64,000 nt of DNA from an uncultured Bacillales bacterium (GCA_905206805.1 CAJLIR010000006.1:2999-66998), one strand, 5' to 3'; numbered from the stretch's first letter, positions 4,910 through 59,317 are shown. Translations and numbers: made by a program. The notes: generated by a model from the letters alone, not told the origin.

Positions 4910-4922
4910 AAAGGGTGTTAAA

Positions 4923-36778: not shown

Positions 36779-36800
36779 GTCGATTTTTGTAATATTTCGG

Positions 36801-36829: not shown

Positions 36830-36870
36830 ATAATTATAATAAGTAAAGTATAGTTAGAAGTTGGGAGAGC

Positions 36871-42426: not shown

Positions 42427-42435
42427 GAGGCAATT

Positions 42436-44550
42436 ATGAAAAAATTTAAAAATTTAAACTTGTTTATAGTATCTGGCTTTATATTTCTATTTTCTATCTT
42501 TTTTATAACTCCAGTATATGCTTTAGGAAGTGCTACAGTAGGTTTTAGTGGCAATTCTACTGTTAGTGTAGGTAGTAATATAACAGTACAATTATATGTA
42601 TCAAATGTTAATGATGCAAATGGTGGTGTTGCAAGTTTTGAAGGAAATCTTTCTTTTGATTCTGATTATTTGGAATATGTATCAGGATCTGGTGCAACAA
42701 CTCCTTATTTGTTTCAAATAAATACAGCTGCAAATTATAAAATTGCAGCTCTTGATACATCTTTAAGTAATGGCATTAAAAGTAGTAGTTCGACTAACGT
42801 TTTTACCTTTGTATTTAAAGCAAAAAAAGAAGGCTCAACAACTGTTAGTATTACAAATTTAAAATTGACTAATAGCAGTGAGAGAATGACTGGTAATGTT
42901 AGCCCAAAAACAATTACGATAAATACTCCTGCACCAGTTACAAAATCAAGTGATGCAACACTTAAAAGTTTATCAGCAACAGGCTATACATTAAGTCCTG
43001 AATTTAATAAAGATATTACATCTTATAAGATTAAAGTTCCAGCAACTGCTACAACAGTTAGTTTACAAGGAAGTGCTAATCATAGTAAGGCAACAGTATC
43101 AGGACTTGGTAATATAAATTTAACTGGTGATACAACTGTTGCAACAATAAAAGTAACAGCCGAAGATGGAACGGTAAAAAATTATACAGTAACAATTGAA
43201 AAAGAAAAAACTACTCCTGTTACAAAGAGTAATGATGCAACACTTAAAAGTTTGGATGTTAGTGGATTTACTTTAAATCCAACTTTTAAAAGTAATGTAA
43301 ATACTTATTCTATTAGGGTTAATAATAATATAACTGGTTTAAAAGTTACTGCTATTGCTAATAGTGATAAAGCTAGTGTTTCTATATCTGGAAATAGTGA
43401 TTGGGAAGAAGGAAACAATATAATTACAATAAAAGTAACAGCAGAAGATGGAACAGTTAATAATTATATTGTTAATGTTAATAGAGCTTCACTAAATACA
43501 ACAAAAGCTATAAATAAATCGAGTGACAATTATTTAAAGAGTTTAATCATTCAATCATCACACGAAATGAAACCTATTTTTGATAAGAATTTAACTAATT
43601 ATAATATTACAGTACCTTATGAGGTTAGCAAACTTGATTTAACTGCTACTAGTAATGACTCTAAAGCAAAAGTTGAAATAATAGGTAATAGTAGTTTTAG
43701 TGTTGAAAAAGTAAATCTTGTTGAAGTTAAAGTAACTGCTGAGGATGGAAGTATTCGTATTTATTCTTTAAACGTTACTCGTAGTACAACTTCTAGTAAA
43801 ACTGATTTAAAAGATTTAGTAATAGATAATGTTAATTTAAGTCCAAAATTTGATTCAAATATTTTAGATTATACTGCTAATGTTGATGCTAAAACTGATA
43901 AATTAAATATTAGATATACAACTAGTAATAGTGATAGTAAAGTCGAAATAATTGGTAATGATAATTTAAAAGAAGGAAATAATACTGTTTTAATAAAAGT
44001 AACTGATAAGGAAGGCTTTACTAAGTATTATTCGATAAATGTTGTAAAAGAAAAATCAGGTAGTACTATTTTAGGTCTTAAACCACTTCATTTTGTACTT
44101 CTATTCTTTATAATACTTCTTTTAATTGCGATAATTATTATTTTATTAATAAAAAGAAAAAAAGATGAGAACAAAAAATTGGAAGAAAAGAAGTTAATGC
44201 AAACGCAACCAATAATTGAAGTAAAACCAGAATTTAATTTTAATTCAAAGAATTCTTCTGATGATGATGTTGTACACGGAAATATGAGTCAAAATAGTGG
44301 TACTATAGGGACAAATCCAGAAAAGAAACAAATTTTTGATGCTAGTTATGAAAATAAAATTCCTTATGACCCTTATGATGAAACAGTTACTAAACAAGAA
44401 TTAATTGATGCAATTCACGAAGCATCAGAAAAAAAGGATGTGTCTAAACTTCAAATGTTGTTGAGGCAAGAAGAGTTAAATAAGATGAAAAAAGAATTAA
44501 AGGAAAAAGAGGATTTAGAACAAAAAGAGGAAGATGAAAAATGGTGGTAA
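42436..44550 (+). CDS. membrane-anchored cohesin protein (704 aa): signal peptide, cohesin domain, 4 cadherin-like domains, TM helix, charged cytoplasmic tail of about 130 aa
   Basis: N-terminal SATVGFSGNSTVSVGSNITVQLYVSNVNDANGGVASFEGNLSFDSDYLEYVSGSG...VFTFVFKAKKEGSTTVSITNLKLTN matches the cohesin fold pattern. TM LHFVLLFFIILLLIAIIIILLI followed by a KRKK stop-transfer. RBS TAGGAGG 10 nt after the upstream gene's stop. Confidence 0.8.
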   Translation: MKKFKNLNLFIVSGFIFLFSIFFITPVYALGSATVGFSGNSTVSVGSNITVQLYVSNVNDANGGVASFEGNLSFDSDYLEYVSGSGATTPYLFQINTAANYKIAALDTSLSNGIKSSSSTNVFTFVFKAKKEGSTTVSITNLKLTNSSERMTGNVSPKTITINTPAPVTKSSDATLKSLSATGYTLSPEFNKDITSYKIKVPATATTVSLQGSANHSKATVSGLGNINLTGDTTVATIKVTAEDGTVKNYTVTIEKEKTTPVTKSNDATLKSLDVSGFTLNPTFKSNVNTYSIRVNNNITGLKVTAIANSDKASVSISGNSDWEEGNNIITIKVTAEDGTVNNYIVNVNRASLNTTKAINKSSDNYLKSLIIQSSHEMKPIFDKNLTNYNITVPYEVSKLDLTATSNDSKAKVEIIGNSSFSVEKVNLVEVKVTAEDGSIRIYSLNVTRSTTSSKTDLKDLVIDNVNLSPKFDSNILDYTANVDAKTDKLNIRYTTSNSDSKVEIIGNDNLKEGNNTVLIKVTDKEGFTKYYSINVVKEKSGSTILGLKPLHFVLLFFIILLLIAIIIILLIKRKKDENKKLEEKKLMQTQPIIEVKPEFNFNSKNSSDDDVVHGNMSQNSGTIGTNPEKKQIFDASYENKIPYDPYDETVTKQELIDAIHEASEKKDVSKLQMLLRQEELNKMKKELKEKEDLEQKEEDEKWW

Positions 44551-46241
44551 AAAATATATTAAATAAGAATATTAAATTATTTCTATTTTCTATTCTTTCT
44601 TTTTGTTTTCTTTTATTTCCATTTATAGCTAAAGCTGATGGAAGTGTGTCATCTGGCTTTAGTGGAAATGATAGTGTTTATGTCGGAAATACTATTGATG
44701 TAACTCTTTATGTAAATGAAAGTGGTAGTGCTTCAGGTATTATGGCAATACAAGGAAGTTTGTCGTATGATAGTAGTAAATTAACGCTTTTAAATTCAGT
44801 TTCATTAGCGCCATATCAAATTCAAATAAATGGTAATAGTATTGCCGGGATGGATACTAGTGGTTCCAGAACAATCAGAGGTTATTCAAATATAATGAAA
44901 TTTACATTTAAAGCAAATTCACTAGGAAGTGCTACAGTAAGTTTTAATGGAGCTAAATATATTGATGGCAACAATTCTTATATTAACGGTGGTGGATGTA
45001 GTAGAACAATAAATATTGTAAATCCTCCTAGTTCAAATAATAATTTAAGTAGTTTGACAGTTAGTAGTGGAAATATCAATTTTGATAAAAATAATACTAA
45101 CTATAATATAAGTGTTGATTCAAATGTAACAAGTATAAATATTGGTGCAACTGCAGAAGATGGGGGAGCTAGTGTATCAGGAACTGGAACTAAAAATTTA
45201 GGATACGGTAATAATTCTTTTGGTATTACTGTAACAGCTCCAAGTGGTGCTACAAAAACATATACAGTAAATGTTAATCGTAAAGATGATAGAAGTAGTA
45301 ATAATAAACTTTCTAGTTTAAGTGTAAATGATGGTGAAATTAATCCTAGTTTTAATGCAGATAATGAGTCTTATGATGTATCAGTTCCATTTAGTGTAGA
45401 TAATTTAAGAATAAATGCTAAAGCACAAGATGGTAAATCAAGAATTGATATTTCTGATACTTCTTTAATTGCTGAGGAAACAAAGGATATATATATAACG
45501 GTAACAGCAGAAAATGGAGCTAAAAAAATCTATACAATTCATGCTACCCGTGGTAAAGATCCGAATAAAGTTCTTTCAACGAATAATTTTTTAGAAAGTT
45601 TAACTGTAAGTTCAGGTGTACTTAGTCCAATTTTTAATAAAGAACAGGATAAATATATCATTTATCTTCCTTATGAAGTTGATTCAATTGATATAACAGG
45701 TATTGTAGAGGATAAAAGGTATGCAACTATAAAAAAAGATGGACCAGAAAAATTAAGTGTTGGAAATAATACTTATACTTTATCTGTAACATCAGAAGAT
45801 AACTCAGTTAGAACATATACAATAATTGTATCAAGAGGAATAAGTATGACTGAGGAAACATTGAGTTCTAATATTTATTTAAAAAGTATTAAATTAAAAA
45901 AAGGTTCATTAAAAGAATCATTTGACAAAGAAATATTTGATTATACTTATACTGGTAGTGAAGTAGAAGCAATTCCTGAAGATGAAAATAGTACGGTGAC
46001 GGTTATAAATCGTAATAATAAAATAATTATTATGGTAAAATCTCCTTCAGGAAGTATTGGTATTTATACATTAACTCCATATAAGTCAAATTTAATTAAT
46101 ATTATTATTTATATAATTTTATCTTTAACAAATATAGTAGGTGGAGTAGGATTTTATATAATATATAAAAAAAATAAAAAGAACAATTCTAAAGTAAAAA
46201 AACAAGATAAAGAGAGAATAACAGTAGATAATAAAAACTAG
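44541..46241 (+). CDS. membrane-anchored cohesin protein (566 aa): signal peptide, cohesin domain, about 4 cadherin-like domains, C-terminal TM anchor
   Basis: SVSSGFSGNDSVYVGNTIDVTLYVNESGSASGIMAIQGSLSYDSSKLTLLNSVS...IMKFTFKANSLGSATVSFNG matches the cohesin pattern. C-terminal TM IIIYIILSLTNIVGGVGFYIIY followed by KKNKKNN. Overlaps the upstream gene by 10 nt (operon). Confidence 0.8.
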   Translation: MVVKNILNKNIKLFLFSILSFCFLLFPFIAKADGSVSSGFSGNDSVYVGNTIDVTLYVNESGSASGIMAIQGSLSYDSSKLTLLNSVSLAPYQIQINGNSIAGMDTSGSRTIRGYSNIMKFTFKANSLGSATVSFNGAKYIDGNNSYINGGGCSRTINIVNPPSSNNNLSSLTVSSGNINFDKNNTNYNISVDSNVTSINIGATAEDGGASVSGTGTKNLGYGNNSFGITVTAPSGATKTYTVNVNRKDDRSSNNKLSSLSVNDGEINPSFNADNESYDVSVPFSVDNLRINAKAQDGKSRIDISDTSLIAEETKDIYITVTAENGAKKIYTIHATRGKDPNKVLSTNNFLESLTVSSGVLSPIFNKEQDKYIIYLPYEVDSIDITGIVEDKRYATIKKDGPEKLSVGNNTYTLSVTSEDNSVRTYTIIVSRGISMTEETLSSNIYLKSIKLKKGSLKESFDKEIFDYTYTGSEVEAIPEDENSTVTVINRNNKIIIMVKSPSGSIGIYTLTPYKSNLINIIIYIILSLTNIVGGVGFYIIYKKNKKNNSKVKKQDKERITVDNKN

Positions 46242-46332
46242 TTAAAGTAGATTATTCTACTTTTTTCTTTAATCAATAGATTGATATATATTTAAATGTT
46301 ATGATACAATGTAAGTGTGAGGTAAATAAAGT

Positions 46333-46779
46333 ATGGGTAGTGTTTTGAAAAAATTAGATAAAAAGGTTTATATTTTAATATTTGCTATTATTTTAATATT
46401 GGTTATTGCCTTTTTTATAATAAAAAATATTAATAGAAAAGAAATAAGTGAAGAAGAAAGATTATCAAATTTATTAATAAAAATGAGTAGTGAATTTTAT
46501 GAAAATTTTTATTATGATCAAATAGGCAGTACAGAAGAAGATAGAATTAATTTTGTAAAAAAATACGAAACTATTGGTATAAAGTTTAATCTTGATAATT
46601 TATCAAGATATAATTTTGATGAAAATAATGAATTAATTAAAGAGTTTATTAATTCAAATACTAATCTAGAATGTAATAGAGTTAATACAAAAGCAATTAT
46701 TTATCCAGTAGAACCATATTCAAAGAAATCATATAATATAAAAATAGAATTAGATTGTAGTCTTGATAATAATAAATAA
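46333..46779 (+). CDS. small secreted / membrane-anchored protein; paralogue of 26933-27355
   Basis: N-terminal TM; conserved core SEFYENFYYD...KYETIGIKFNLDNLSRY...TKAIIYP...C...C. Confidence 0.55.
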   Translation: MGSVLKKLDKKVYILIFAIILILVIAFFIIKNINRKEISEEERLSNLLIKMSSEFYENFYYDQIGSTEEDRINFVKKYETIGIKFNLDNLSRYNFDENNELIKEFINSNTNLECNRVNTKAIIYPVEPYSKKSYNIKIELDCSLDNNK

Positions 46780-46845
46780 TTATAATTTTTGACAAATATA
46801 TTCATATATATACAAATTTTTCATAATTTTTAATAGAGGTGGATT

Positions 46846-47268
46846 ATGAAAAAAATATTATGTATTATATTATGCTTTTGTATGTTTTTACCATTTTCAA
46901 TAAAGGCTGATGAAGTTGATTTAGCACCTAATGCAGGAAGTGCAGTTTTAATGGAATTTGAAACAGGTGAAATAATTTTTGAAAAAAATTCTCACGAGAA
47001 ATTGCACCCAGCATCAATGACAAAAATTATGTCTATGTTAATAATTATGGAACATATTGATAAAGGTTTAATTGGTTGGGATGATGTAGTAACAGCAAGT
47101 GAGAATGCATCTGGTATGGGAGGCTCACAAATTTTACTTGAAACTGGCGAAAAAATGAAAGTTAGTGATTTATTTAAGGGAATTGCGGTTGCAAGCGGAA
47201 ATGATGTGGTGGTAGCCAAAAAGCAGTCGCTAGTTATAGGAGAAGAAATAATAATAGAACAACATTAA
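46846..47268 (+). pseudogene. truncated 5' duplicate of the D-Ala-D-Ala carboxypeptidase gene (first about 116 codons), ending in unrelated junction sequence
   Basis: 46795-47196 is about 99% identical to 48978-49388 (promoter, RBS and 5' coding region of the gene at 49028). It diverges after GIAVASGND into a short tail that recurs at 57473-57545. Confidence 0.65.
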
Positions 47269-47300
47269 GACCTTATATTTTAAAGTATTACTATAATTTG
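47183..47300. repeat. imperfect direct repeat, about 118 bp, copy 1 (dacF-derived 20 bp plus junction tail)
   Basis: About 88% identical to 57473-57590 (ttgcaag(c/t)ggaaatgatgtgg(t/c)ggta(g/a)ccaaaaagcagtcgctagtta...aataataata...accttat.ttttaaagtatta). Confidence 0.7.
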
Positions 47301-47343
47301 TATATATAGGCAAATTATTTGACTTTTTTTTGGAGGTGGTAAA

Positions 47344-48069
47344 ATGTCAGTGTTTAAGATTGAAAAGACAAAAGATTATACCGTTATGTCAAATTATCAT
47401 TTAAGAGATAAAAATTTAAGTTATAAAGCAAAAGGTTTATTGTCGTTTATGTTATCATTACCAGATGACTGGGATTATTCTTTAAATGGTTTATGTTCGA
47501 TTAGCAAAGAAAGTAGGGATGGAATAAGATCCATACTTAGAGAGTTGCAAGAACATCATTATGTAGAAATAGAAAAAGTAAGAGGAGATAAAGGATATTT
47601 TGAATATAACTATTTAATATATGAAATGCCACATTGGATTTGTTTGGAAAATGAGAAAAATAATCCAGATATGGAAATTCCACACCTGGATATTCCAAAT
47701 GTGGAAAATACTACACAAATAAATACTAATAAACAAATAGAAAAAGATGATAAAACAAAAATATCATCTTTTTTTGTTGCAGAAGAACACAATCTATTAA
47801 CATTGGAGTTAATAGATAGAGGTTACTTAACTGAAAATGATATGCAAATTTTTTATTATGATAATTTATTTGAACAATTATTAAAGGGAGAAAATTCATA
47901 TAAAGACTTAATTCAAATAATACACTATATAGTTCCAAGAGTGATTAATCGAAATTTTAAAGATGAAGATGGGAATGTTATTGTTAATAAATTTGGATAT
48001 TTCAAAAATGCTATTATAGATAATATAAATAAGTTAAATAAAAGAAATGAAAGCTTATGGGAATTATAA
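47344..48069 (+). CDS. RepA_N-like replication initiator / replisome-organizer protein of plasmid or phage origin
   Basis: N-terminal region YTVMSNYHLRDKNLSYKAKGLLSFMLSLPDDWDYSLNGLCSISKESRDGIRSILRELQEHHYVEIEKVRGDKGYFEYNYLIYEMP matches the Firmicutes RepA_N winged-helix pattern. Confidence 0.55.
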   Translation: MSVFKIEKTKDYTVMSNYHLRDKNLSYKAKGLLSFMLSLPDDWDYSLNGLCSISKESRDGIRSILRELQEHHYVEIEKVRGDKGYFEYNYLIYEMPHWICLENEKNNPDMEIPHLDIPNVENTTQINTNKQIEKDDKTKISSFFVAEEHNLLTLELIDRGYLTENDMQIFYYDNLFEQLLKGENSYKDLIQIIHYIVPRVINRNFKDEDGNVIVNKFGYFKNAIIDNINKLNKRNESLWEL

Positions 48070-48152
48070 ACTTAAAGCAAATTTAGAAAAAGTTTATTAT
48101 AAATTCATATTATATATGATATAATTATATTGAATTGTTATGGAGGATATAA

Positions 48153-48929
48153 ATGAAAAAAATTATTTTTGCAGTATGTTGTTTAATTATTTTTATCATT
48201 TTAATTTTAAAAAATGTTTCATTTGGAATAACTGATTTTATTGACAAAAAAAATGACTTAATTATAAAAATTCCTAAAACATATATAAATAAAATTGAGA
48301 ATAAAGAAGGTGTAATTGTACTTAAAACAATTAAGAGTAAAAGAATTTTGAAGAATGATATGGATAAAATTATTGAAAGTTTAGAAAAAAAGATGTGTAA
48401 TCAAAAAGATGTATATTATGATATAGCAAACAATATAAAAATAACTGGTTATGAAATTAAGTCAAAAAATTTAATCAATTATTTGTATATTAATTATTCT
48501 AAAGAAGATTATGATGCATATAACTGTCAGAAAATAACATATCCAGAATTAATAAAGTATGTAGTACGTTCTCAGGCAAATAATCAATGCGTATTAGTTA
48601 ATGGATATAAGTATAAAAATGAAGATGGAAATTTATATAATGTTTATCTTGATTGTATTGGTAGTATTTTAATACAAAATGGTGCAGGTTATATGACTCA
48701 TTTACAATCTTTACTTTATTCTAATTTAATTGATATGAATGATATTTTAAATTTTTTTGAATATCAGTTTGAGATAAATAATGGTACTAAAGAAACAATA
48801 GATAATAATGGTACCGTTTTATATAAAACAAATTATTTTTCATTACTTAAATGTAATACACTTGATGGTAATAAGGATATATATATGGGTAATGAAAATT
48901 TTGTTTATAAAAGTGATTATTGTAAATAG
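48153..48929 (+). CDS. hypothetical secreted protein (258 aa)
   Basis: N-terminal signal/anchor; no recognisable domain. Confidence 0.45.
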   Translation: MKKIIFAVCCLIIFIILILKNVSFGITDFIDKKNDLIIKIPKTYINKIENKEGVIVLKTIKSKRILKNDMDKIIESLEKKMCNQKDVYYDIANNIKITGYEIKSKNLINYLYINYSKEDYDAYNCQKITYPELIKYVVRSQANNQCVLVNGYKYKNEDGNLYNVYLDCIGSILIQNGAGYMTHLQSLLYSNLIDMNDILNFFEYQFEINNGTKETIDNNGTVLYKTNYFSLLKCNTLDGNKDIYMGNENFVYKSDYCK

Positions 48930-49027
48930 TTTTATATTAATGTATCAGATGAAATAAAAAATTCTATAAATTTACAAATATATTCATATATATACAATTT
49001 TTTCATAATTTTTAATAGAGGTGGATT

Positions 49028-50182
49028 ATGAAAAAAATATTATGTATTATATTATGCTTTTGTATGTTTTTACCATTTTCAATAAAGGCTGATGAAGTTG
49101 ATTTAGCACCTAATGCAGGAAGTGCAGTTTTAATGGAATTTGAAACAGGTGAAATAATTTTTGAAAAAAATTCTCACGAGAAATTGCACCCAGCATCAAT
49201 GACAAAAATTATGTCTATGTTAATAATTATGGAACATATTGATAAAGGTTTAATTGGTTGGGATGATGTAGTAACAGCAAGTGAGAATGCATCTGGTATG
49301 GGAGGCTCACAAATTTTACTTGAAACTGGCGAAAAAATGAAAGTTAGTGATTTATTTAAGGGAATTGCGGTTGCAAGCGGAAATGACGCTGTTGTAGCGA
49401 TGTCGGAGTATATAGCAGGTACTGAAGAAGCATTTGTTAAAATGATGAATGAAAAAGTTAAAGAACTAGGTTTAAACGATACAAACTTTAAAAATGTACA
49501 CGGATTAGATGATGCTAATCACTATTCGAGTGCTTATGATATGGCTATGATGGCTAGAGAATTAATAAAACATAAAACTGTTTTAAAATATACATCTATT
49601 TATGAAGATTATTTAAGAAAAGGAACTGATAAAGAATTTTGGCTTGTTAATACAAATAAATTAGTAAGATTTTATGATGGAGCGGATGGACTTAAAACAG
49701 GATATACAAAAGAGGCTGGATATTGTCTTACTGCAACAGCAACAAAAAATAATATGCGACTTATTGCAGTAGCAATGAATGAACCAGATAGTAAAACAAG
49801 AAATGCAGAAGTAACATCTATGCTCGATTATGGATTTGCTCAATATTCAACAGAAACTTTATTATCTACTGAAAGTGTTTTAGATAAAGCTTTAGTTGAT
49901 AAAGGCAAAAAAGAATATGTAGAAATAATACCAACAGAAAATATTACTTTCTTAAATAAAAAAACAGAAGAAAAAAAGAATGCCTCATACGAAATTAAGT
50001 TAAATAAATTATCTGCACCATTAAAAAAAGGTGATGTAGTAGGGACATTAATTGTAAAATTTGATGATAATAATCAAAAGTGTGTAGATATAACAATAAA
50101 AGAAGATGTAGACAAATGCAATATTTTTGAATTATTTATTAGATATTTATGTGATGTATTAAGTGGGAATATAAAATTCTAA
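49028..50182 (+). CDS. dacF: serine-type D-alanyl-D-alanine carboxypeptidase (peptidase S11, PBP5/DacF-like)
   Basis: Signal peptide; SMTKIM (SxxK) active-site motif, SGN motif, KTG motif (LKTGYT); 384 aa. The dacF assignment rests on the spore-former context and is tentative. Confidence 0.85.
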   Translation: MKKILCIILCFCMFLPFSIKADEVDLAPNAGSAVLMEFETGEIIFEKNSHEKLHPASMTKIMSMLIIMEHIDKGLIGWDDVVTASENASGMGGSQILLETGEKMKVSDLFKGIAVASGNDAVVAMSEYIAGTEEAFVKMMNEKVKELGLNDTNFKNVHGLDDANHYSSAYDMAMMARELIKHKTVLKYTSIYEDYLRKGTDKEFWLVNTNKLVRFYDGADGLKTGYTKEAGYCLTATATKNNMRLIAVAMNEPDSKTRNAEVTSMLDYGFAQYSTETLLSTESVLDKALVDKGKKEYVEIIPTENITFLNKKTEEKKNASYEIKLNKLSAPLKKGDVVGTLIVKFDDNNQKCVDITIKEDVDKCNIFELFIRYLCDVLSGNIKF

Positions 50183-50212
50183 GGATTATCACAATTGGTA
50201 ATTCTTTTTTAT
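50183..50212 (+). terminator. terminator-like hairpin plus T-run after dacF; variant of the repeated intergenic element
   Basis: GGATTATCAC-aatt-GGTAATTC followed by TTTTTT; related to the elements at 55634, 56928 and 58468. Confidence 0.35.
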
Positions 50213-50288
50213 TATTAAAATTTTATAAATTTCACCCAATAGTTAATTCTATTTTATAAATGCATAATATAAGATAGGAGGGTAAAAT

Positions 50289-51416
50289 ATGTATAATAAT
50301 TGTAACTGTAATGATGATTATGAAAGAATAAAAAAACGTATAGATGAGGAAAGCAAAAAATATAAACAATGTTATATACAAGGTCCACCTGGACCAAAAG
50401 GAGAACAGGGAATTAAAGGAGATCCAGGTCCAGCTACTATCAGAGTAGGTAGTACAGAAACTGTAGAATCTAGTGAACCCGCTTTAGTAATAAATACTGG
50501 TACGAAAGAAGACGTAATTTTAGATTTTAAAATACCAAAAGGTGATAAAGGAGATAAAGGAGAACAAGGTATTCAAGGAATGCAGGGACCAAAAGGAGAA
50601 CAGGGGGATAAAGGTGATATTGGTTTAAAAGGTGATAAGGGTGAAAAGGGAGAACCAGGACCAACTACTATCAGAGTAGGTAGTACGGAAACAGTGGAAT
50701 CTGGTGAATCCGCTTTAGTAATAAATGCTGGTACAAAAGATGACATAATTTTAAATTTTAAAATACCAAAAGGTGATAAAGGAGATAAGGGAGATTCAGG
50801 TCCTAGAGGACTTCCTGGAGAAATAGGCAGAACTGAACATATAGCAATAGACGAAACTGAAACTCTTGAACCAGGTGAACCTGCTCAAGTTATGGATACT
50901 TTTGAAAATTGGGTTCATCACTTATCATTTCTTATACCAAAAGGAGAAAAAGGTGATTTAGGTCCTGTAGGACCTCAGGGACCTACGGGGCAATCATTTG
51001 TATCTTCGTATGGAATTAGATATTCAATGACTGATACTCAGCTCAATTTACCACAGGCAACTGATACTGTAATTCCTTTACCAGAAAAGGGCATTTCATT
51101 TTTTACAGAGTATCCTGATGATAATTCAATCAAGATAAAAGAAAGTGGAGTTTATTTGGTATCATATTTATTATGTGCTGCAACTAATGAAGAATGTTCT
51201 ATAACAATGTCGGTTAGAGCAAATGATATACTTCAACCTGCAACAAGTGCTACTAGTGAGTTTCAAGCACAGTTGATAAATAATATAAGTGGGTCAACAA
51301 TTATATCATTACAAACAAATGATCTTATAACACTGAATGTAAAATCTTCTAAGAATGTTAACATGAAGTTTAATGGTAGTACTAATGCAATGTTGAGTAT
51401 TATTAAAATTCATTAA
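50289..51416 (+). CDS. BclA-like collagen-repeat exosporium/surface glycoprotein (interrupted Gly-X-Y triple-helix region plus C-terminal TNF/C1q-like domain)
   Basis: Cys-rich N-terminus (NCNCNDDYERIKKRIDEESKKYKQCYIQ). Multiple GxxGxx runs (GPPGPKGEQGIKGDPGP) interrupted by repeated roughly 45-aa non-collagen modules (TIRVGSTETVESxEPALVINxGTKxDxILxFKIPKGDKGDKG). C-terminal roughly 130 aa follows the BclA C-domain pattern (ESGVYLVSY...NAMLSIIKI). Confidence 0.75.
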   Translation: MYNNCNCNDDYERIKKRIDEESKKYKQCYIQGPPGPKGEQGIKGDPGPATIRVGSTETVESSEPALVINTGTKEDVILDFKIPKGDKGDKGEQGIQGMQGPKGEQGDKGDIGLKGDKGEKGEPGPTTIRVGSTETVESGESALVINAGTKDDIILNFKIPKGDKGDKGDSGPRGLPGEIGRTEHIAIDETETLEPGEPAQVMDTFENWVHHLSFLIPKGEKGDLGPVGPQGPTGQSFVSSYGIRYSMTDTQLNLPQATDTVIPLPEKGISFFTEYPDDNSIKIKESGVYLVSYLLCAATNEECSITMSVRANDILQPATSATSEFQAQLINNISGSTIISLQTNDLITLNVKSSKNVNMKFNGSTNAMLSIIKIH

Positions 51417-51516
51417 TAAATTTTAATCAAGTAATTGTTACTTGATTTTTTTTGTTATATATTAATTAAGTCCTTTTTTATGTATTTAATATATTATAAT
51501 AAAGGAAAGTGAAAAT

Positions 51517-53376
51517 ATGAAAATAATAGATAATAAAACAGTAGTTGTAACCAATAGTGAAGAATTAAAAACTGCTTTAAGTGGAGATAATGAATATGTT
51601 TATATTTATTTTGGTAATGATATAACACTTGAAAGTGGTTTTGTAATTAATTCTAATAAAGAAAAAGTAATTATAGATGGAACATACCAAAATCATAAAT
51701 ATACATATTATAATTATTTATCAGAAAATAATGATGTTATAATAGCAAATTCTGATAATAAAGTAATAACAGTAAAAAATTTAGTTATAAAATCTTCACA
51801 TACTCTAGGTGTTATTTATGTTTCTGATAATGAAATTTATGAAAATGTTAAAGTTGTATATAGTAATATTCAATTTAATGGTATAAAGTTATCAAATAAT
51901 TTATATGGTACTACTAAGATTTTAGACAGTAGCATAACTATAGAAGATATAAATAATATCAAAGCTCAAAGTGTATGTGATTGCAATAAAATTGAAATAG
52001 GTGGTCAGACTACTTTTGATACTCCTAACACTGCCTTTTTATATCAACATACTATAGAACCATCTAAGTTTACTATACTTACAAATAGTAAGGTAAATTT
52101 AAATACATTGAATGCTTTTTTCAATGGTACACCAAGATTAGATTTTAAAATATTACATAATTCGGAATTTAATTTGACTACTGGTAATGGATTTGCACAA
52201 ACAATTAATAATGGTTGCAAAAACGTTTTAATAGATGAATATTCTACATTTAATTTTATTGAAAATAATCATCAAAGAATACCAATGTGGAATGTATATG
52301 GTGATTTTATTGTTAATAATTATGCTAGTTTATTCATAATAAATAGTTTTGATTCTACTCCTGCAGATAATTATAATATATATTTTAAGGGTACTAATCA
52401 AAATTTAGTTTTAAATAATCCTAAGAGTATCATTATTTATACAAAAAATGCAAATATTCTATATACTGAAAATCCAGTAAATTTTTCATTTGAATTCAAT
52501 AGATTAAATATGTGGATTAATTCTAAGAATATTACAACAGCTGGTAGTATTGATAATTTACCTGATTATTCTTGGTATAAAGTTGATACACTATCACAAG
52601 TTAAAGGTGTATTTTATAAAACTACAACAACAATAACAGAAACAAATTATACTGAACAAGAAAAAAATAAATTACCTGATTTATCTAATTTTATCTTTCA
52701 AAATAGAAAACAATTTTCAATTGGAATGATAAAAAATAATATTCATCCAATTGACAGTAATTCTACTAAAATATCAGGACATACAATGCCACATACTGAT
52801 GTTTTAATCTCTTATGATAGTATATATGAAATAGTAACTTCGGATGTTGATGGATTATTTGAATATATTTTGTTAGACGATATTCAGGATGGAACTAATA
52901 TAACAATTGTTTTTTGTAAACCAACAAGTTTTGTTTATGATACTAGGTTAATTGTAACACCATTTGAAGGAGAAATTACACTTTTAAATTCAACTGAAGT
53001 AGTGACATTTGATAAAATTCCAATATCAACTAATCCTATTATTTTAGGAAAGAAAAAAAATACTACAATTACAGTTATTGATAGTAGAAAAAATGGTACG
53101 GAATTTAATTTATATCTTAATTATGTAAATCCTATGATGACAATAGATGGAAAAGTATTAATTGATTCTTTAATATTTAAAAAATTTGATGACGAAATAA
53201 TTACGTTAAGAAATGAACCTAAATTAATTTATCAAGGAAAAAAAACAAATAATCAAGTAAACATAGAAAATATTACATTTTCAACTGATAAAGGTTTATT
53301 ATTAAGATTAGACGATGATAAGTATAATTTAAAAGATGAATTTGTAACTAAATTTATATGGACAATAGAATTATAA
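51517..53376 (+). CDS. hypothetical Asn-rich protein, possibly a right-handed beta-helix fold
   Basis: 619 aa; N-terminal TVVVTNSEELKTAL...YIYFGNDITL...IIDGT, then many short V.I.N-type beta-strand repeats; weak assignment. Confidence 0.4.
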   Translation: MKIIDNKTVVVTNSEELKTALSGDNEYVYIYFGNDITLESGFVINSNKEKVIIDGTYQNHKYTYYNYLSENNDVIIANSDNKVITVKNLVIKSSHTLGVIYVSDNEIYENVKVVYSNIQFNGIKLSNNLYGTTKILDSSITIEDINNIKAQSVCDCNKIEIGGQTTFDTPNTAFLYQHTIEPSKFTILTNSKVNLNTLNAFFNGTPRLDFKILHNSEFNLTTGNGFAQTINNGCKNVLIDEYSTFNFIENNHQRIPMWNVYGDFIVNNYASLFIINSFDSTPADNYNIYFKGTNQNLVLNNPKSIIIYTKNANILYTENPVNFSFEFNRLNMWINSKNITTAGSIDNLPDYSWYKVDTLSQVKGVFYKTTTTITETNYTEQEKNKLPDLSNFIFQNRKQFSIGMIKNNIHPIDSNSTKISGHTMPHTDVLISYDSIYEIVTSDVDGLFEYILLDDIQDGTNITIVFCKPTSFVYDTRLIVTPFEGEITLLNSTEVVTFDKIPISTNPIILGKKKNTTITVIDSRKNGTEFNLYLNYVNPMMTIDGKVLIDSLIFKKFDDEIITLRNEPKLIYQGKKTNNQVNIENITFSTDKGLLLRLDDDKYNLKDEFVTKFIWTIEL

Positions 53377-53439
53377 AAACTGCATATATTTTTAATATAT
53401 TAAATTTATACATATAAATATATCATAATGAGGTGATTT

Positions 53440-53787
53440 ATGGATAAAGATTATATTTATGTGAAATTAATGTCTAGTAACAATGTTTGTATTAATAAAA
53501 TACAGTTTGTATTAAAAGATGTTTATAATAATATAGTTTTTAATGGAATAACTGATAATTATGGAGGTATTGAATTACCTATAAATAATAAAAATATTTA
53601 TAAATTATTAATATATTCTGGAGTTGGATTAATTCAAATACCAATATATGCTTTAAAAAATGCAAGATATTGTATATGTATTAATGAAGAAAAAAATAAT
53701 AAGAAGAAAAATAATAAAATGTTATTATTTGATTCTAATTATCCAGAAATTAAAATAAAGAAAGGAGAGATAATTTTATGGCAATAA
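53440..53787 (+). CDS. hypothetical protein (115 aa)
   Basis: ORF with a GAGGTG RBS; no recognisable domain. Confidence 0.35.
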   Translation: MDKDYIYVKLMSSNNVCINKIQFVLKDVYNNIVFNGITDNYGGIELPINNKNIYKLLIYSGVGLIQIPIYALKNARYCICINEEKNNKKKNNKMLLFDSNYPEIKIKKGEIILWQ

Positions 53788-54329
53788 AACATAGAATTCC
53801 AATAACTAATGGACTTGGAAGTTTAGAGGTTGTTAATGGACGATATAATGTAACGGCTGAAGTACCTGGATATGACAATTCAACTTTAACTCCTAAAAGC
53901 ATAGAAATAGTAGATGGTGTTGAAACGTATGCTTTTACAATTTCTGCTACTGGAACTCTTACAATTAATGTAACAGATACAGGAAGTTCAACTACTGGTG
54001 TACAAATAGTTGGAGCTAAATTTGTAAGAACTGATTATCAAGGAAATGAAATAGGTGTTGAAGCTATAACTGATTCAGATGGTAATGCGAAATTTTTGAA
54101 TGTGCCATTTTCTGCAAATAATAGTTTAAAAATATATTTTAAGCAAGTAACTAGTGATGGGAAACATACGTTTAGTGAAGAAGTGAGAAATATAGAAATG
54201 AAAATGAATGAAGAAACTATTGAAATCGCAAATCCATTAGCTCCACTTAAAAAATTTACATTATCAGATTCAAATTTTGTAAATATACTTATTGATGATG
54301 GCGATTTATATATTGAAGAAAACGGTTAG
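53778..54329 (+). CDS. hypothetical beta-rich protein (183 aa)
   Basis: Overlaps the upstream ORF by 10 nt (coupled); Thr/Gly/Val-rich Ig-like composition. Confidence 0.4.
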   Translation: MAIKHRIPITNGLGSLEVVNGRYNVTAEVPGYDNSTLTPKSIEIVDGVETYAFTISATGTLTINVTDTGSSTTGVQIVGAKFVRTDYQGNEIGVEAITDSDGNAKFLNVPFSANNSLKIYFKQVTSDGKHTFSEEVRNIEMKMNEETIEIANPLAPLKKFTLSDSNFVNILIDDGDLYIEENG

Positions 54330-54415
54330 AAAAAACCTAATTTAATAAATTTTTATGAATAAAAAAATTATATATATTTTATTGTTATATAAATTTAATT
54401 AGGAAGGAGAATGTT

Positions 54416-55525
54416 ATGAATAATAATTCCTGTAATTGTAATTATAATGATAATTATGAGAAAATAAAAAAACGAATAGAAGAAGAAAGTAAAAAATATA
54501 AAATGTGTTATATACAAGGACCGACTGGTCCTAGAGGTGATATTGGACCAACTGGACCAAAAGGAGAAGATGGTCCAACAACAATTGAAGTTGGTACAAC
54601 AGAAACAGGTGAACCTAATACTGAGGCTATCGTAAAAAATGTTGGCACAAATAAAAATGTTATTTTAAATTTTGTAATACCTAAAGGAGTTACTGGTGAT
54701 AATGGTGATAAAATTATTATTGGCAAAACGGAAACATTAGATGCTAATGCTAAAGCAAAAGTTATTGATACTTTAGTTGGAAATGTTCATACACTAGATT
54801 TTTATATACCACAAGGGTTTGATGGTATAAATGGCGCTGTAGGTCCTAAAGGAGAAACTGGGAAAAGTGAAGGGATTAAAGTTATTAATACAAAAACAAT
54901 TTCCCCAGGCACAGAAGCAGAAGTTACTGATGATTTTGATGGTGATACACATTATTTGACATTTTCTATTCCAAAAGGAGAAAAAGGTGAACAAGGAGTT
55001 GCTGGTGAAAGGGGAGAAAGAGGAATAGCAGGCCCAGTTGGACCAGCCGGTTTGCAGGGAGAAGTAGGTCCAACAGGTCCAATGGGTCCAGCAGGGACTT
55101 CTTCACTTGATGCATTTGCATTTCTTTATGAAGATAATGGAAATTCTTATTCTTTAACACCAAATACACCAAATCAAATTGATTTAGGTCAAACTTCTCA
55201 AATTAAAAATGTTGATACAACTTTTACAAATACAATTAAAATACAAAATACAGGAGTATATAAAATTGATTATTTTTTTGAGGCCAAAGCTTCTGCTAAT
55301 GCAAATGTATCATTAGAAGTTAGAAAAGAAAATATCACAGTAAATGGTACAAAAATAACAAAAGAAGTAAATAATCAAAATTATGTTAGTTTTACTGGAA
55401 GTATAATTACAGTGTTAAATAAAAATGATAAAATTGATTTAGCATTATCATCGACAGTAAGTGTTACATTAACTCCAAATGATGATACTAGTTCTTACCT
55501 AAGTGTTATAAAGATAGATAATTAA
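54416..55525 (+). CDS. BclA-like collagen-repeat protein, paralogue of 50289-51416
   Basis: Same Cys-rich N-terminus ([51 protein letters not shown]); interrupted Gly-X-Y runs with non-collagen inserts; [22 protein letters not shown] block; C-terminal beta-rich domain. Confidence 0.75.
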
Positions 55526-55633
55526 TTTTCTTTTAAATTATTAAAATAATTAATAAAAAATAAGATATATAAAAAATTGTTAGAATAAACATAAAAATTA
55601 ATGATTGATAGTAAAATTAAATATTATTTAGAT

Positions 55634-55668
55634 TTTAAGGGTTATCGAATGATAATTCTTTTTGTATA
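55634..55668 (+). terminator. repeated terminator-like element, copy A (TTTTAAGGGTTATCGAATGATAATTCTTTTT)
   Basis: GGGTTATC / GATAATTC stem (two G-U wobbles), GAAT loop and T-run; downstream of the collagen-like gene. Confidence 0.45.
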
Positions 55669-55726
55669 GTTAAATGTTAAATTTTACTATATATAATTTT
55701 TAGTGTATAATTATATTGGTGATAGT

Positions 55727-56908
55727 ATGGAAAAGTATCTTGAAGATTTGAATTATTTAATTAAAATGTTAGAATGTAATCATTTAGATATTTATTTTAA
55801 TGTATCTAAATCTGATTTGAATAATTATATTAATTATATAAAAGAAAATATTTTAATTAATAATGATTATCAATTTATGTATATTATAAAAAAAGTTATT
55901 AAAAAATTAAGTGGAATATATGACTCTCATACTAGGGCTATGTTTCAAAATAATAAATTATTACCAATAAAAATCAAAGTAATTAAAGATAAGGTATATA
56001 TAATAAAAACATTAGATGAATATAAAAATATTTGTTATAGTGAAATTACTCATATTAATGGAATAAGTATGAATAACCTAATTAGTGAATTGGAAGAAAC
56101 AATTTCTTATTCTACTAGGGAATGGTTAATAAAAAATATTCAGGATGATTTAATTAAAATTAATAGTTTAAAGATGTTACCAAGTATTGGTGATGCTTAT
56201 TCTATTGATTTGACAATCAAAAAAAATAATAATATTAATAGTATTAAATTCGATTGTAATAAAGATTATCAAAAAATAACAAATGATGATAAAAACTATA
56301 CATTTGAAATAATAGATGATGTTTTAAAAATAAATTATACAAGTTGTATTGAAAAGAAAAAAAATCAAATGTTAGATTTTATTAATGATATAAATACGAA
56401 TGTAAATAATAGAATTATTAATGATGTTGTTGTTGATTTACGTGGTAATGTGGGTGGTAATGATACTATAATAAAACCCTTACTTGAATATTTAAAAAAT
56501 AATTTTACTAATATTTATTTGTTACAAGATGGTGGTATATTTTCTGGTGGCAGATTTGCTTTGTTTGATTTAAAAAATATTGGAAGTTGTACAATAGGCA
56601 CAAATATAGGAACTCAGGCAAATTGTTTTGGAAATTTAAAAAAGTTTAATGATAAAAGTTATTTTGAACTTCCAAATACAAAATTTAAAATTACTTGTTC
56701 AACTAAATTTTATTATTTAGATAATGGTTTAATAAAGTTTACTTCTGATAAAAAAGAACTATCGATTTTAAAGAGAAATAAAAAAATTTTAGAACCAATA
56801 TATTTTGAACCTGATTATTATGTAGAAGAGGATATAAATGATTATGAACAGGGTATTGATTCGTATATGGAACAGTTTAAAGAAATAAAAAATTTAAAAA
56901 TTAAATAA
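55727..56908 (+). CDS. hypothetical protein with a possible S41 (C-terminal processing peptidase)-like domain
   Basis: VVVDLRGNVGGN resembles the S41 DLRxNxGG motif; weak, single-motif assignment; start chosen at the ATG at 55727 after GGTGATAG. Confidence 0.4.
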   Translation: MEKYLEDLNYLIKMLECNHLDIYFNVSKSDLNNYINYIKENILINNDYQFMYIIKKVIKKLSGIYDSHTRAMFQNNKLLPIKIKVIKDKVYIIKTLDEYKNICYSEITHINGISMNNLISELEETISYSTREWLIKNIQDDLIKINSLKMLPSIGDAYSIDLTIKKNNNINSIKFDCNKDYQKITNDDKNYTFEIIDDVLKINYTSCIEKKKNQMLDFINDINTNVNNRIINDVVVDLRGNVGGNDTIIKPLLEYLKNNFTNIYLLQDGGIFSGGRFALFDLKNIGSCTIGTNIGTQANCFGNLKKFNDKSYFELPNTKFKITCSTKFYYLDNGLIKFTSDKKELSILKRNKKILEPIYFEPDYYVEEDINDYEQGIDSYMEQFKEIKNLKIK

Positions 56909-56927
56909 AAGATTATTAAAAAGTTAA

Positions 56928-56994
56928 AATCAAATAATTAAAATGTTTATTTAAAATTTTAAGGGTTATCGAATGATAATTCTTTTTTGTATAC
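56928..56994 (+). terminator. repeated intergenic element, copy B (conserved 35-nt leader plus terminator hairpin and T-run)
   Basis: AATCAAATAATTAAAATGTTTATTTAAAATTTTAAGGGTTATCGAATGATAATTCTTTTTT; about 90% identical to 58468-58530. Confidence 0.5.
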
Positions 56995-57155
56995 AAATGA
57001 TGTAATATTTAGTATTTGAGATCATTATTTTTTGATAGAATTATTTCATATCGTTTGTAATATTAAATTATTTATAAATATTTGATTTTTAATTAGAAAA
57101 AATATAAAATATAATAGATACGATTTATAAATTTTTATTTAGGGAGGTAGAAAAA

Positions 57156-57455
57156 ATGAATATGCAAGAAATGCAAAAAGAAATATGGCAAAATAAAATA
57201 AATAAGGGATTTAATACAACAGATGTTAATAAAGAATTTTGTTTATTATATGGAGAAGTGGCAGAGGCTTATGATGCTTATAGGAAAAAGAAAGATGATT
57301 TAAATGAGGAACTTGCTGATATTGCTATATATTTAATGGGGCTTTCTCAAATGCTAGGTTATGATTTAGAAACTGAAATAATAAAAAAAGTAAAAAAGAA
57401 TAAAACTAGAGTATATAAAAATATTGATGGGGTAAACACGAGAATTAGTGATTAA
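57156..57455 (+). CDS. MazG-like nucleotide pyrophosphohydrolase (small all-alpha NTP-PPase)
   Basis: EFCLLYGEVAEAYDAYRKKKDDLNEELADIAIYLMGLSQMLGYDLE matches the MazG/NTP-PPase EExxE...ELxD signature; GGGAGG RBS. Confidence 0.65.
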   Translation: MNMQEMQKEIWQNKINKGFNTTDVNKEFCLLYGEVAEAYDAYRKKKDDLNEELADIAIYLMGLSQMLGYDLETEIIKKVKKNKTRVYKNIDGVNTRISD

Positions 57456-57472
57456 TAAATTTAATTGATTTG

Positions 57473-57590
57473 CTATTGCAAGTGGAAATGATGTGGCGGT
57501 AACCAAAAAGCAGTCGCTAGTTACAGGAGAGGAAATAATAATATAATTACATATAAACCTTATGTTTTAAAGTATTATTGTAATTCTTTC
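57473..57590. repeat. imperfect direct repeat, about 118 bp, copy 2
   Basis: About 88% identical to 47183-47300, including the short dacF-derived GNDV codons and the shared tail. Confidence 0.7.
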
Positions 57591-57672
57591 ATTGATTGAA
57601 TAGTTAGCTAATTTATGAATTTAAAAAATGGAAAAATGCATAGGTAACTAAAAATAAAGGAAATGAAATTAA

Positions 57673-58467
57673 GTGAAAATTTTAAGTTACAATATATATG
57701 GTGTTAAAAACACAACATATCCAATACCTAAGTGGGAAATAAGGCAAAAAAATATAAAAAGGATCTTAAATAATCTACTAAAAGATATTGAAATAAAGGT
57801 ATGTTGTTTTCAAGAGGTAAATGAAAATAACATAGAATCATTACATGAAATATTAAATCATAATAATTTTAAAATGTTAGAAAAATTTCCAATGAAAACA
57901 GAATCATATAATCAATACAATATAGTTGCAATTAGAAATGAAGATTCAATAAAGGTGAATTTTGTATATTGTTTGCCACATGGAAAAGACATAGAATATA
58001 AAAAAGTCGAAGAACAAAAAATTGATTATAATATGAGTGATTATAGAACAACCATATTTGTAAATTTTGAATATAATAATAAAAACTATCTTGTAGGAGA
58101 TATTCATACAGATTATATATCTACAAATGGAAAAATAAAAGGAACTGTTAAATCACTAAATTACATGGATACAATAAAATGTGATTATAAATTAATTATT
58201 GGAGATATGAATATGGTTTCACATATGTCCGAAGTCTATAATATTTTAAAACAAAATAATAACTATACTACTATTTCGAGAAATAATATTTTTCACATAT
58301 CTGATAATTCATGGCAAGGATATGGAACAAAGGAACAAGTTAATGTTGATTTTGCCTTTATAGAAAAAAAGATGATAAAAAATTACAATTATGAAATTAT
58401 AAAACAAGATAATATGATGAATGAGGGATCAGATCATAGGCCCGTTGTATTAACTATTAAAGAATAA
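57673..58467 (+). CDS. endonuclease/exonuclease/phosphatase (EEP)-family protein; GTG start
   Basis: N-terminal ILSYNIYG, CFQEV, C-terminal GSDHRPVVL, the typical EEP catalytic motifs; AAAGGAAAT RBS 7 nt before the GTG. Confidence 0.7.
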   Translation: MKILSYNIYGVKNTTYPIPKWEIRQKNIKRILNNLLKDIEIKVCCFQEVNENNIESLHEILNHNNFKMLEKFPMKTESYNQYNIVAIRNEDSIKVNFVYCLPHGKDIEYKKVEEQKIDYNMSDYRTTIFVNFEYNNKNYLVGDIHTDYISTNGKIKGTVKSLNYMDTIKCDYKLIIGDMNMVSHMSEVYNILKQNNNYTTISRNNIFHISDNSWQGYGTKEQVNVDFAFIEKKMIKNYNYEIIKQDNMMNEGSDHRPVVLTIKE

Positions 58468-58530
58468 AATCAAATAAGTAAAATGTTTATTTAAAATTTT
58501 AAAGATTATCGAATGATAATTCTTTTTTTA
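58468..58530 (+). terminator. repeated intergenic element, copy C
   Basis: AATCAAATAAGTAAAATGTTTATTTAAAATTTTAAAGATTATCGAATGATAATTCTTTTTTT immediately after the EEP gene stop. Confidence 0.5.
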
Positions 58531-58622
58531 TTAGGAATGTTGATCTAATATTAATTATGTGATAAAATATTTAGTAGGGTAAATTTAGTCAAAATTATTA
58601 TTTAAAAATAAAAGAGGTTATT

Positions 58623-59317
58623 ATGAAATGTAATAATTATAATAGTGAGCGTGTTATAGATTGTTTATATAATAGAGGATATACTAATTTTTTAAATAGA
58701 AAAGAATTTCAAATAATAAAAAGCAATTAAAATCATGTGAATACAATGTATATGAATTATATAAAGAATCTTCAAAAATTATACTTTATAATAAAAAAAT
58801 TCCGGATATTGCTATTTTAAAAATAGATTGTAATAATAAACTAAAGCATCAAAGTATTATGGGAACAATATATTCACTAGGTTTAAATGATGATGTTTTT
58901 GGAGATATCATTTATTATGAAGATTCATTTTATATTTTTGTTTTACCTATTATAAAAAATTATTTAATTCAAAATATGTTTATAGTAGAAAAAAATAAAG
59001 TAAATTTAAGAGAAGTTGATTTAAGTATTAGTTTAAATTTTAAAATCAATTATGAAGTAAAAAATTATATAGTGTCTTAACTTAGAATCGATAATATTAT
59101 AAGTAGTATAATAGGTGATAGTAGAAATGGTGTACTTGATAAATTTAAAAATAAAGAAATTATAATAAATTATAATGAAAATATAAAACCATCTTATACA
59201 TTAAAAGAAAATGACATATTTAGTATAAGAAAATATGGTAAATATAAATTTAAGGGCATTGTTAAAACAACTAAAAAGAGTAGTTTAATTATAGAAGTTT
59301 TAAAATATATTTAAAGG
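58623..59317 (+). pseudogene. YlmH-like S4-domain RNA-binding protein gene, disrupted by one frameshift (near 58700-58730) and one in-frame TAA (59078-59080)
   Basis: Three consecutive ORF pieces together give roughly 230 aa resembling B. subtilis YlmH (GTIYSLGLNDDVFGDII versus GTLMSAGLKREKFGDII; C-terminal S4 domain RIDNIISSIIGDSRNGVLDKFKNKEIIINYNENIKPSYTLKENDIFSIRKYGKYKF). Confidence 0.5.

Follow-up and report, generated by a model that had tools for sequence, protein, structure and literature searches.

Probable attL scars of a carboxypeptidase-targeting serine recombinase family beside an intact dacF gene in an uncultured Bacillales bacterium

Gene-intervening elements and the dacF locus

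In spore-forming bacteria, several genes are interrupted by intervening elements which are excised by large serine recombinases (LSRs). Examples of such elements are skin in sigK, excised by SpoIVCA, SPbeta in spsM (SprA/SprB), vfbin, and the non-phage gin in gerE (PMC4191935, PMC5499854, PMC5595907). The serine-recombinase integrative and mobilizable elements (IMEs) of gut Firmicutes, e.g., IME_Rho_tet, also insert within small conserved open reading frames (ORFs) (PMC12904643). The locus considered here lies in a 64,000-nucleotide stretch of DNA from an uncultured Bacillales bacterium (GCA_905206805.1, CAJLIR010000006.1:2999-66998). The whole stretch is referred to as the window, and its features are given in window coordinates, on the plus strand unless stated otherwise. 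The window is AT-rich (~25% GC) and chromosomal, and encodes RNase J, FtsY/Ffh, FeoB, a pseudouridine synthase, and VanY. Beside an intact dacF gene for an S11 D,D-carboxypeptidase, it probably holds two recombinase-less attL scars of a family of LSR elements that targets dac genes, rather than a 10-kb island.

The dac elements found in other assemblies resemble skin, SPbeta, and gin in that the coding sequence is split, the LSR gene is located at one end beside an att site, and attL and attR rejoin to an intact ORF. The complete dac elements examined contain no phage structural genes, which they have in common with gin, and no conjugation genes, and their cargo is variable. Three differences separate them from the described systems. 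First, the target of the dac family is an S11 D,D-carboxypeptidase gene, cut at its SxN motif, in uncultured low-GC gut Bacilli. Second, the sporulation-timed excision is a property of skin and SPbeta, whereas the dac elements are known here from sequence alone. Third, the copies in the window have lost the recombinase and cannot excise. The similarity to IMEs of the IME_Rho_tet type includes the small size (~6–11 kb), the variable cargo, the serine recombinase, the inverted-repeat ends, the intra-ORF position, and the near-identical copies across gut species. In contrast to those IMEs, no relaxase or mobC was seen in the complete dac elements examined, the target is a different one, and the left-end gene is HTH_36. 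The kind of element is well known, the dac gene as its target is new, and the window shows it as a fossil; no report of such a target for LSR elements of this kind was found in the searchable literature. This reading offers a mechanism for a puzzling local structure composed of a half-gene, a stray replication-type gene, and a repeated tail.

Junctions and complete elements in dac genes

The intact dacF (49028-50182) encodes a 384-aa protein which matches Peptidase_S11 (1e-81) and PBP5_C (2.9e-13) and carries the SMTK, SGN, and KTG motifs, while its matches to the generic DacA, DacD, and PBP3 models stay below their cut-offs. Its 5′ region is duplicated upstream. The repeat, named R, occupies positions 46792-47204 (copy A) and 48974-49386 (copy B, a part of the intact dacF), and the two 413-bp copies differ by a single mismatch at 46816/48998. 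R begins 12 nt past the stop codon of the preceding ORF, o148, covers the dacF promoter region with the whole upstream intergenic sequence, and continues through the first 359 nt of the dacF coding sequence, where the identity stops within the Asp codon after Ser-Gly-Asn (GAT vs. GAC). Its left limit is the point where the dacF upstream regions linked to o148 and those linked to another gene, orf258, cease to resemble each other. Copy A opens a truncated dacF′ ORF of 140 aa (46846-47268). It agrees with DacF over residues 1-119, both proteins have Asp at position 120, and 20 tail codons follow (VVVAKKQSLVIGEEIIIEQH, then a stop). The truncated protein keeps the SxxK and SxN motifs, is devoid of KTG and everything downstream, and is recorded on 37 contigs; it is presumed from its motif content to be inactive.

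At approximately 47203-47206 (AATGA/T GTGG), copy A, the host (B) arm of the first junction (attL1), passes into a 94-nt sequence named tail 1 (47205-47298), which comprises the element-side (P′) arm of attL1 and a conserved leader. The same arm recurs in the second scar as tail 2 (57492-57585), identical at 81 of the 94 positions (86%), and a 21-mer of the tail occurs exactly twice in the window against zero expected occurrences. The dacF duplication and the recurrence of the tail had been noticed in the first-pass annotation of this DNA, and both are borne out, with the limits of the dacF duplication, given there as about 400 bp, slightly shifted. Tail 2 is preceded by a decayed relic of a dac 5′ arm (57412-57491, ~50–75 nt), which contains an indel and stop codons and overlaps the last codons of a MazG-like ORF. 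The relic is 65% identical over 79 columns, and the residues I-A-I-A-S-G-N-D are still readable in it. A tblastn search of DacF against the 64-kb window revealed no other piece of a dac gene, and in particular no 3′ relic that might represent an attR.

The nature of the tail becomes visible in a survey of 33 unique junctions from gut “Bacilli” assemblies (GTDB genomes and metagenomes). The dac 5′ fragments at these junctions are mutually unlike and show 34–87% amino acid identity to that of the window, and the genes neighboring dac differ between species (ylxM, Mur ligase, VanY, BclA). Nevertheless, all the fragments end at one point, after the S-[GA]-N-D codons (...AAYGAT), where the common tail follows. 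The mean pairwise identity amounts to 59% over 87 nt of the host side, which displays a codon-like periodicity, and to 87% over 110 nt of the element side. An example of this behavior is the pair L014 and L015, whose identity is 69–77% in the RNase J and FtsY genes that lie upstream of the junction, and 99.3% over the 11 kb downstream of it. Such a combination of a diverged host side and a near-identical element side points to horizontal transfer and thus to the mobility of the element. Judged from these junctions and from the complete elements described below, the tail is the P′ arm of the attL of an LSR element targeting the SxN-encoding DNA of dac genes. The intact dacF in turn carries an unoccupied attB-like site, centered at 49379-49400 (GGAAATGAC GCTGTTGTAGCG) according to the attB comparison. 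At the presumed crossover, the intact gene reads GAC GCT (49385-49387), while attL1 (47203-47205) and nearly all other junctions read GAT G. The GAC could be a synonymous change affecting the re-use of the site, or GAT could simply be the base derived from the element.

No exact match to the tail pattern was obtained in the GTDB species genomes, where the pattern was probably too strict, because a protein-seeded scan of the same collection did find tails, and an exact-match search of IMG/VR returned nothing. Promoter and terminator scans around both tails yielded no more sites than shuffled sequence. In one contig (L069, JABLTL010135451.1, ~300-390), the tail is fused to a small non-dac ORF (...YSLSNDSRKD/VAAIKKQS). 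This junction could be an integration at a pseudo-attB or a rearrangement. It was also considered as an attP and rejected, since its left side is a small unrelated ORF and not the 3′ end of a recombinase gene.

Both halves of the dac gene were found in three loci. The element of L056 measures 6,364 bp and encodes an LSR of 561 aa (11747-13432); the rejoined dac ORF of 384 aa is 49% identical to the DacF of the window. The L055 element is 10,277 bp long, with an LSR of 552 aa (12483-14141) which is 78% identical to that of L056, and its dac halves rejoin in frame in an ORF that runs off the contig. The third element, L080, spans 5,754 bp with an LSR of 574 aa (4775-6499) and a rejoined dac ORF of 381 aa. 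In L056, the dac 5′ fragment and the tail precede a fragment of the HTH_36 gene. ABC-transporter cargo and a 65-aa ORF come next, and the LSR gene is last, its 3′ end passing directly into the 3′ part of dac; L055 and L080 have the same architecture. LSR genes thus adjoin the dac 3′ part in all three loci and also in L018 (17840-19441). The L056 recombinase matches the PHROG integrase profile (1e-106), CcrB (3e-33), and XisF (1e-28). None of the resolved intervening elements contains a dac gene or a BclA homologue.

When attL and attR are joined in silico at GAT/G, uninterrupted S11 ORFs are obtained in L056 and L080. An LSR attP is expected to cover ~50 bp, with imperfect inverted-repeat half-sites around a short core common with attB, and the reconstructed site agrees with this, its common core being GAT G. 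The P arm (...ACTGCTTTTTAGTAATAGCGAAGGAT) has its outer motif in common with the reverse-complemented P′ arm (...ACAGCTTTTTAGTTACCACCAC), and in L055 and L056 the two arms carry an inverted ACWGCTTTTT-AGT motif, as in LSR attP sites. The assembled loci show the mechanism at the level of the family, in which the LSR occupies the right end, the HTH_36 gene the left end, and the dac gene is split exactly at the S-x-N(-D) codons. A new and highly conserved target for LSR integration is thereby identified in the sequence that codes for the SxN active-site motif of PBP5-type carboxypeptidases. The reconstructed attP/attB pairs and the recombinases of L055, L056, and L080 lend themselves to direct testing and could extend the integrase toolbox. 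The number of interrupted dac genes also implies that annotation pipelines will count too few functional genes for the cell wall in uncultured gut Bacilli, and that the 5′ fragments may be mislabelled.

Two observations concern the recombinase end of these elements. A 65- or 66-aa ORF (MNNNFSIDIAKKEIQKAI...), with no significant Pfam match, is conserved directly upstream of the LSR gene (L056 11532-11729; L080 4557-4757) and is a candidate for a recombination directionality factor or regulator. In L018 (Clostridium sp. CAG:417, FR890374.1; 8043-10001 and 17840-19979), a second S11 paralogue (LLRSGNE) is apparently split twice. One LSR gene ends there just before a middle dac piece starting right after SxxK (KIMTATIALE...), an HTH_36 element is located at the SGN codons, and a second LSR with the dac 3′ part lies 9.5 kb downstream.

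The leftmost gene of these elements, represented in the window at 47344-48069, encodes a 241-aa protein with HTH_36 as its sole Pfam match (2.8e-8). The protein also matches the PHROG profiles of a replication initiation protein (1.9e-22) and a DnaD-like loader (3.7e-11), and is 35–55% identical to phage “replication initiation proteins” and enterococcal plasmid DUF6017 proteins. Only its first 100–190 residues match anything, and a PDB sequence search gave chance-level matches only. Its likeness to the phage initiators and DnaD-like loaders lies in the N-terminal winged-helix domain, and no origin or iterons were recognised. The RepA_N identity initially proposed for it fails the Pfam profile search (PF06970), and NCBIfam returns no match. 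The homologues number in the thousands, at 76–83% identity, in gut metagenome-assembled genomes labelled Bacilli, Mollicutes, Tenericutes, or “Clostridium sp. CAG:417”, and in many of these loci a truncated S11 ORF precedes the gene. In L011-L013, L020, and L021, an HTH_36 gene (80% identical) stands without the upstream dac fragment and tail and follows HTH_3 and ParB_N genes. By this gene order, the left-end gene occurs also in a different element context.

Origin of the first scar and competing explanations

The unit of scar 1 consists of the tail, the HTH_36 gene, and orf258. It measures 2,182 bp (46792-48973) and is flanked by the 413-bp direct repeats, with the intact dacF after them. 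The orf258 product (48153-48929) has a predicted N-terminal membrane segment and belongs to no known family, with nothing above the curated Pfam cut-off and no match in NCBIfam or PHROGs. The tail and HTH_36 gene of the window (865 nt) are 98.4–99.0% identical to the copies in the loci L100-L107, in which the dac side is 65.5%, 66%, 72%, 92%, or 100% identical to that of the window. After the HTH_36 stop codon, these loci continue into a common segment of at least 5.5 kb with 99.7–100% identity, coding for an HTH_19 protein (reverse strand), a 100-aa protein, an acyltransferase, a hybrid kinase, and NUDIX and LysR proteins. The homology of the window to this longer element copy halts exactly at 48069. 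A novel joint of 38 bp (48070-48107) follows, and the homology to the orf258-upstream region begins at 48108. On these alignments, scar 1 corresponds to the leftmost 0.87 kb of an element lineage that is spreading at present and has entered at least four further dac alleles, one of them conspecific and 100% identical. The targeting of the SxN motif probably explains how one lineage enters dac alleles that are only 65% alike.

The conspecific allele, L103, comes from the species of the window and has a 100% identical host side. In L103 and L100, orf258 is followed by R, and R passes directly into the tail, the HTH_36 gene, and different DNA, which is the rest of the element. In the window the order is R, the tail, the HTH_36 gene, the 38-bp joint, orf258, R, and the 3′ part of dacF. 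The gene order of the window is thus circularly permuted relative to L100 and L103, which suggests a homologous recombination of the Campbell type. Roughly 27 conspecific loci (L001-L010, L086-L098) were compared, and at least 14 of the conspecific contigs carry an empty allele, in which o147/o148, dacF, and BclA follow each other without the truncated copy, HTH_36, or orf258. They include L086 (a 90.8-kb scaffold and seven similar places), L087, L088, L095, L098, and L010, a very close relative with 99.0–99.7% identity.

Campbell-type integration by a single crossover, and the aberrant excision seen in specialised transducing phages, are established genetics. The likeness of scar 1 to this system lies in the insert between long target repeats, the one truncated and one intact copy, the permuted order, and the reversible loss. 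It differs in being deduced from natural population variation, and in that the end of the truncated repeat was set by an earlier attL junction. From the flanking direct repeats, the empty alleles, and the circular permutation we infer the event itself. The most likely origin of scar 1 would thus be an illegitimate joint followed by a Campbell-type crossover. In the first step, an element with an LSR would integrate at the catalytic S-x-N(-D) codons of an S11 dac gene and split it. Next, one illegitimate joint (48070-48107) would close a 2.18-kb circle or make a tandem duplication in the element-bearing strain. One homologous crossover in R, by which the unit entered or recombined with a dacF allele that was not interrupted, would then produce the truncated copy, the stranded attL, and the intact gene. 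Recombination between the copies of R could remove the 2.18-kb unit again. This repeat-mediated loss would account for the conspecific strains without the unit and fits the empty allele in the close relative L010. The message of the window itself is a modest one, namely a fossil which is polymorphic in the species and removable through the 413-bp repeat.

The second scar is probably older and fixed. The comparison of strains points in this direction: each of the four strains with sequence at this position (L091, L095, L097, and L098) has tail 2 together with the decayed dac arm, and three of them are without scar 1. It would represent an older attL whose dac arm has decayed and whose downstream cargo has been exchanged. 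As for the window as a whole, it has no recombinase, attR, or attP, and both of its sites are of the attL type, so it does not contain a functional LSR element.

Several points weigh against the history proposed for the two scars. No LSR, attR, or excised form was found for the window's own copy, so its history can only be pieced together from comparisons. In L100-L107, the right end of the element is not reached, and an LSR is assumed there by analogy. The polymorphism may have arisen by gain of the unit in an empty allele or by its loss from an occupied one. The Asp codon at tail 1 is GAT and that of the intact gene GAC, so the exact crossover dinucleotide is not fixed. The attP junction had no exact match in the viral (IMG/VR) or JGI metagenome collections, which is a weak negative. 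Finally, all comparison data are metagenome assemblies, probably short-read, in which a 413-bp repeat can be collapsed by the assembler. In this respect, the R copies of one strain share strain-specific single-nucleotide polymorphisms (SNPs), and the differences between copies occur only within 25 bp of the repeat ends. Such a pattern fits gene conversion as well as the collapse of repeats by assemblers; the copies are near-identical regardless.

Among the alternatives, the one that survives best involves no circle, and we regard it as unlikely. In this model, the full element would have entered dacF, and a tandem duplication or unequal exchange between sister chromosomes would then have doubled the promoter and 5′ region. 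Excision by the recombinase, or deletion of the right part, would then have restored dacF and stranded the attL, with the unit-less strains arising later by recombination of the 413-bp repeat. The end product is the same as that of the preferred joint and crossover, the empty allele in the very close L010 suits a recent repeat-mediated loss, and L103 shows that the element can occupy the orf258-linked dacF of this species. However, the model needs orf258 to be native between o148 and dacF, or else an extra precise deletion joining o148 to R, and in L100 it is unrelated DNA, not o148, that precedes orf258. It also requires more steps than one joint and one crossover.

The model of the first-pass annotation is very improbable. 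It proposed a single ~10.3-kb island (47.2–57.5 kb) of plasmid or phage origin, bounded by attL/attR-like repeats and carrying a replication gene, dacF, and the BclA and MazG genes as cargo. The segment is indeed flanked by two direct repeats of ~139 nt with 83% identity, and MazG-like genes are common in phages (that of the window matches a PHROG pyrophosphatase, 1.5e-15). Yet both repeats have the same polarity and composition, a dac arm on the left and a P′ arm on the right. Both are therefore of the attL type and cannot bound one element as an attL/attR pair. A pattern search allowing up to three mismatches detected no P arm in the window, which is also without attR. The reported absence of an integrase is confirmed: a tblastn search with the recombinase of the family (the L056 LSR) gave nothing below E = 3 in the whole 64-kb window, and Pfam found none on the ORFs of at least 70 aa from 42.4–63.2 kb and on ten other ORFs. 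The 10.3-kb interval never varies as a unit among the ~27 conspecific loci, none of which is without the segment. The strains without scar 1 in which the sequence extends further keep the region from dacF through MazG and tail 2, and the comparison with empty sites reveals that the 2.18-kb piece varies instead. A megablast search of 46200-58600 against plasmids and phages produced no match, and the element, which is no plasmid or recognisable phage, is one of the small, cargo-variable LSR elements. There is no sign that the intact dacF and the BclA cluster are cargo, given that the resolved elements elsewhere contain neither. Of the proposed gene content, the S11 gene, the two BclA-like genes, and the MazG-like gene stand, whereas RepA_N does not and the S41-like assignment is sub-threshold only. 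Likewise, site-specific recombination into the dacF 5′ region and homologous recombination through the repeat stand from the original proposal, and the capture of an island does not.

Two further explanations are hardly credible. According to the first, there is no mobile element, the tail continues an old dac pseudogene in diverged form, and gene conversion between dac paralogues has produced the 413-bp identity. The first 15 tail codons do weakly resemble DacF (D-V-V-V-A...G-E-E vs. D-A-V-V-A...T-E-E), and the strain-specific SNPs common to both copies are what gene conversion predicts. However, the weak resemblance is expected anyway, as the half-sites of attP and attB are related for any given LSR. 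The same tail and the gene behind it follow dozens of unrelated dac alleles in other species at 87–99% identity, and in the complete cases the tail is paired with a recombinase-attR junction which restores the ORF. These recombinase-linked complete elements rule out the tail as a diverged dac pseudogene. The second, a mis-join of two strains in a metagenome assembly yielding the 413-bp duplicate and the 2.18-kb loop, would suit the probable short-read origin of the window and the comparison contigs and the confinement of copy differences to 25 bp at the repeat ends, but the same structure and joints were assembled independently in nine other samples by different assemblers, on contigs up to 377 kb, and the 140-aa product recurs on its 37 contigs.

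The broader meaning of the two attL scars and their relatives can be considered only tentatively. In uncultured low-GC gut Bacilli, a widespread and hitherto undescribed LSR family might act as a reversible switch of gene integrity for a peptidoglycan D,D-carboxypeptidase, cutting it at SxN, with a second element apparently at SxxK in one genome, and might influence the maturation of the cell wall or the spore cortex in analogy to skin and SPbeta. The window would then record an escape from the switch, in which dacF became permanently intact through repeat recombination and an orphan attL with a replication-type gene was kept. We consider this scenario rather doubtful.

The second scar and the neighboring genes

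The DNA to the right of tail 2 differs between strains. In the window, this position is occupied by a gene for a 264-aa protein with no family match (57673-58467), which is partly deleted in L098. In L097, the sequence switches at 57583, two bases before the tail end, to genes for a dCMP deaminase, an acetyltransferase, and an ASCH protein, and homology resumes at 58457. The tail thus acts as a self-contained unit, and the cargo in the slot behind it can be exchanged. Variation among the conspecific loci also affects the scar 1 unit (46792-48973) and the S41-like gene, and some loci have a separate insert of 5.96 kb after dacF.

Between dacF and tail 2, the two genes with Collagen and BclA_C domains and the MazG-like gene are confirmed, and the “S41-like” gene has a sub-threshold match (E 0.0012). 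A comparison of orf258, BclA, o619, MazG, and the 264-aa gene with L011-L057 revealed only weak NUDIX and ABC similarities, so that the cargo of the window is lineage-specific. The S41-like gene (55703-56908) is present in some strains and absent from others, the region concerned being 55601-57002. It is bounded by a 78-nt repeat (55601 and 56925), a third copy of which follows the 264-aa gene (58465-58542). The motif AAGG(G/A)TTATC...GATAATTCTTTTTT also occurs after dacF (50183-50215) and looks like a common terminator-like cassette boundary.

The 5.96-kb insert is found directly after the dacF terminator in some conspecifics (L003 11189-17146; L004, L008, L089, L093, and L096). It codes for a 165-aa protein, an HTH_31/MqsA-like protein, a fragment of an IS110 DEDD transposase, two NUDIX proteins, and a HAD hydrolase. 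Behind the insert, the dacF 3′ end (window 49650-50215) is present again as a 566-bp duplicate, which makes it the second case of an insert with a long dacF-derived direct repeat at this locus.

Farther from dacF, the region 27428-46241 encodes giant cadherin-like, cohesin, and dockerin surface proteins (3101, 1851, 704, and 566 aa) with internal repeats. The region is strongly strain-variable, and L008 is without 28370-44303 entirely. The YlmH_RBD gene at 58859-59080 is apparently disrupted in the window, where the ORF has 73 aa compared to 230 aa elsewhere (e.g., L001 18246-18938). A 151-aa ORF on the minus strand (21252-21707) corresponds to the C-terminal third of a Mutator-family transposase only (1.7e-30) and is a remnant of an insertion sequence.

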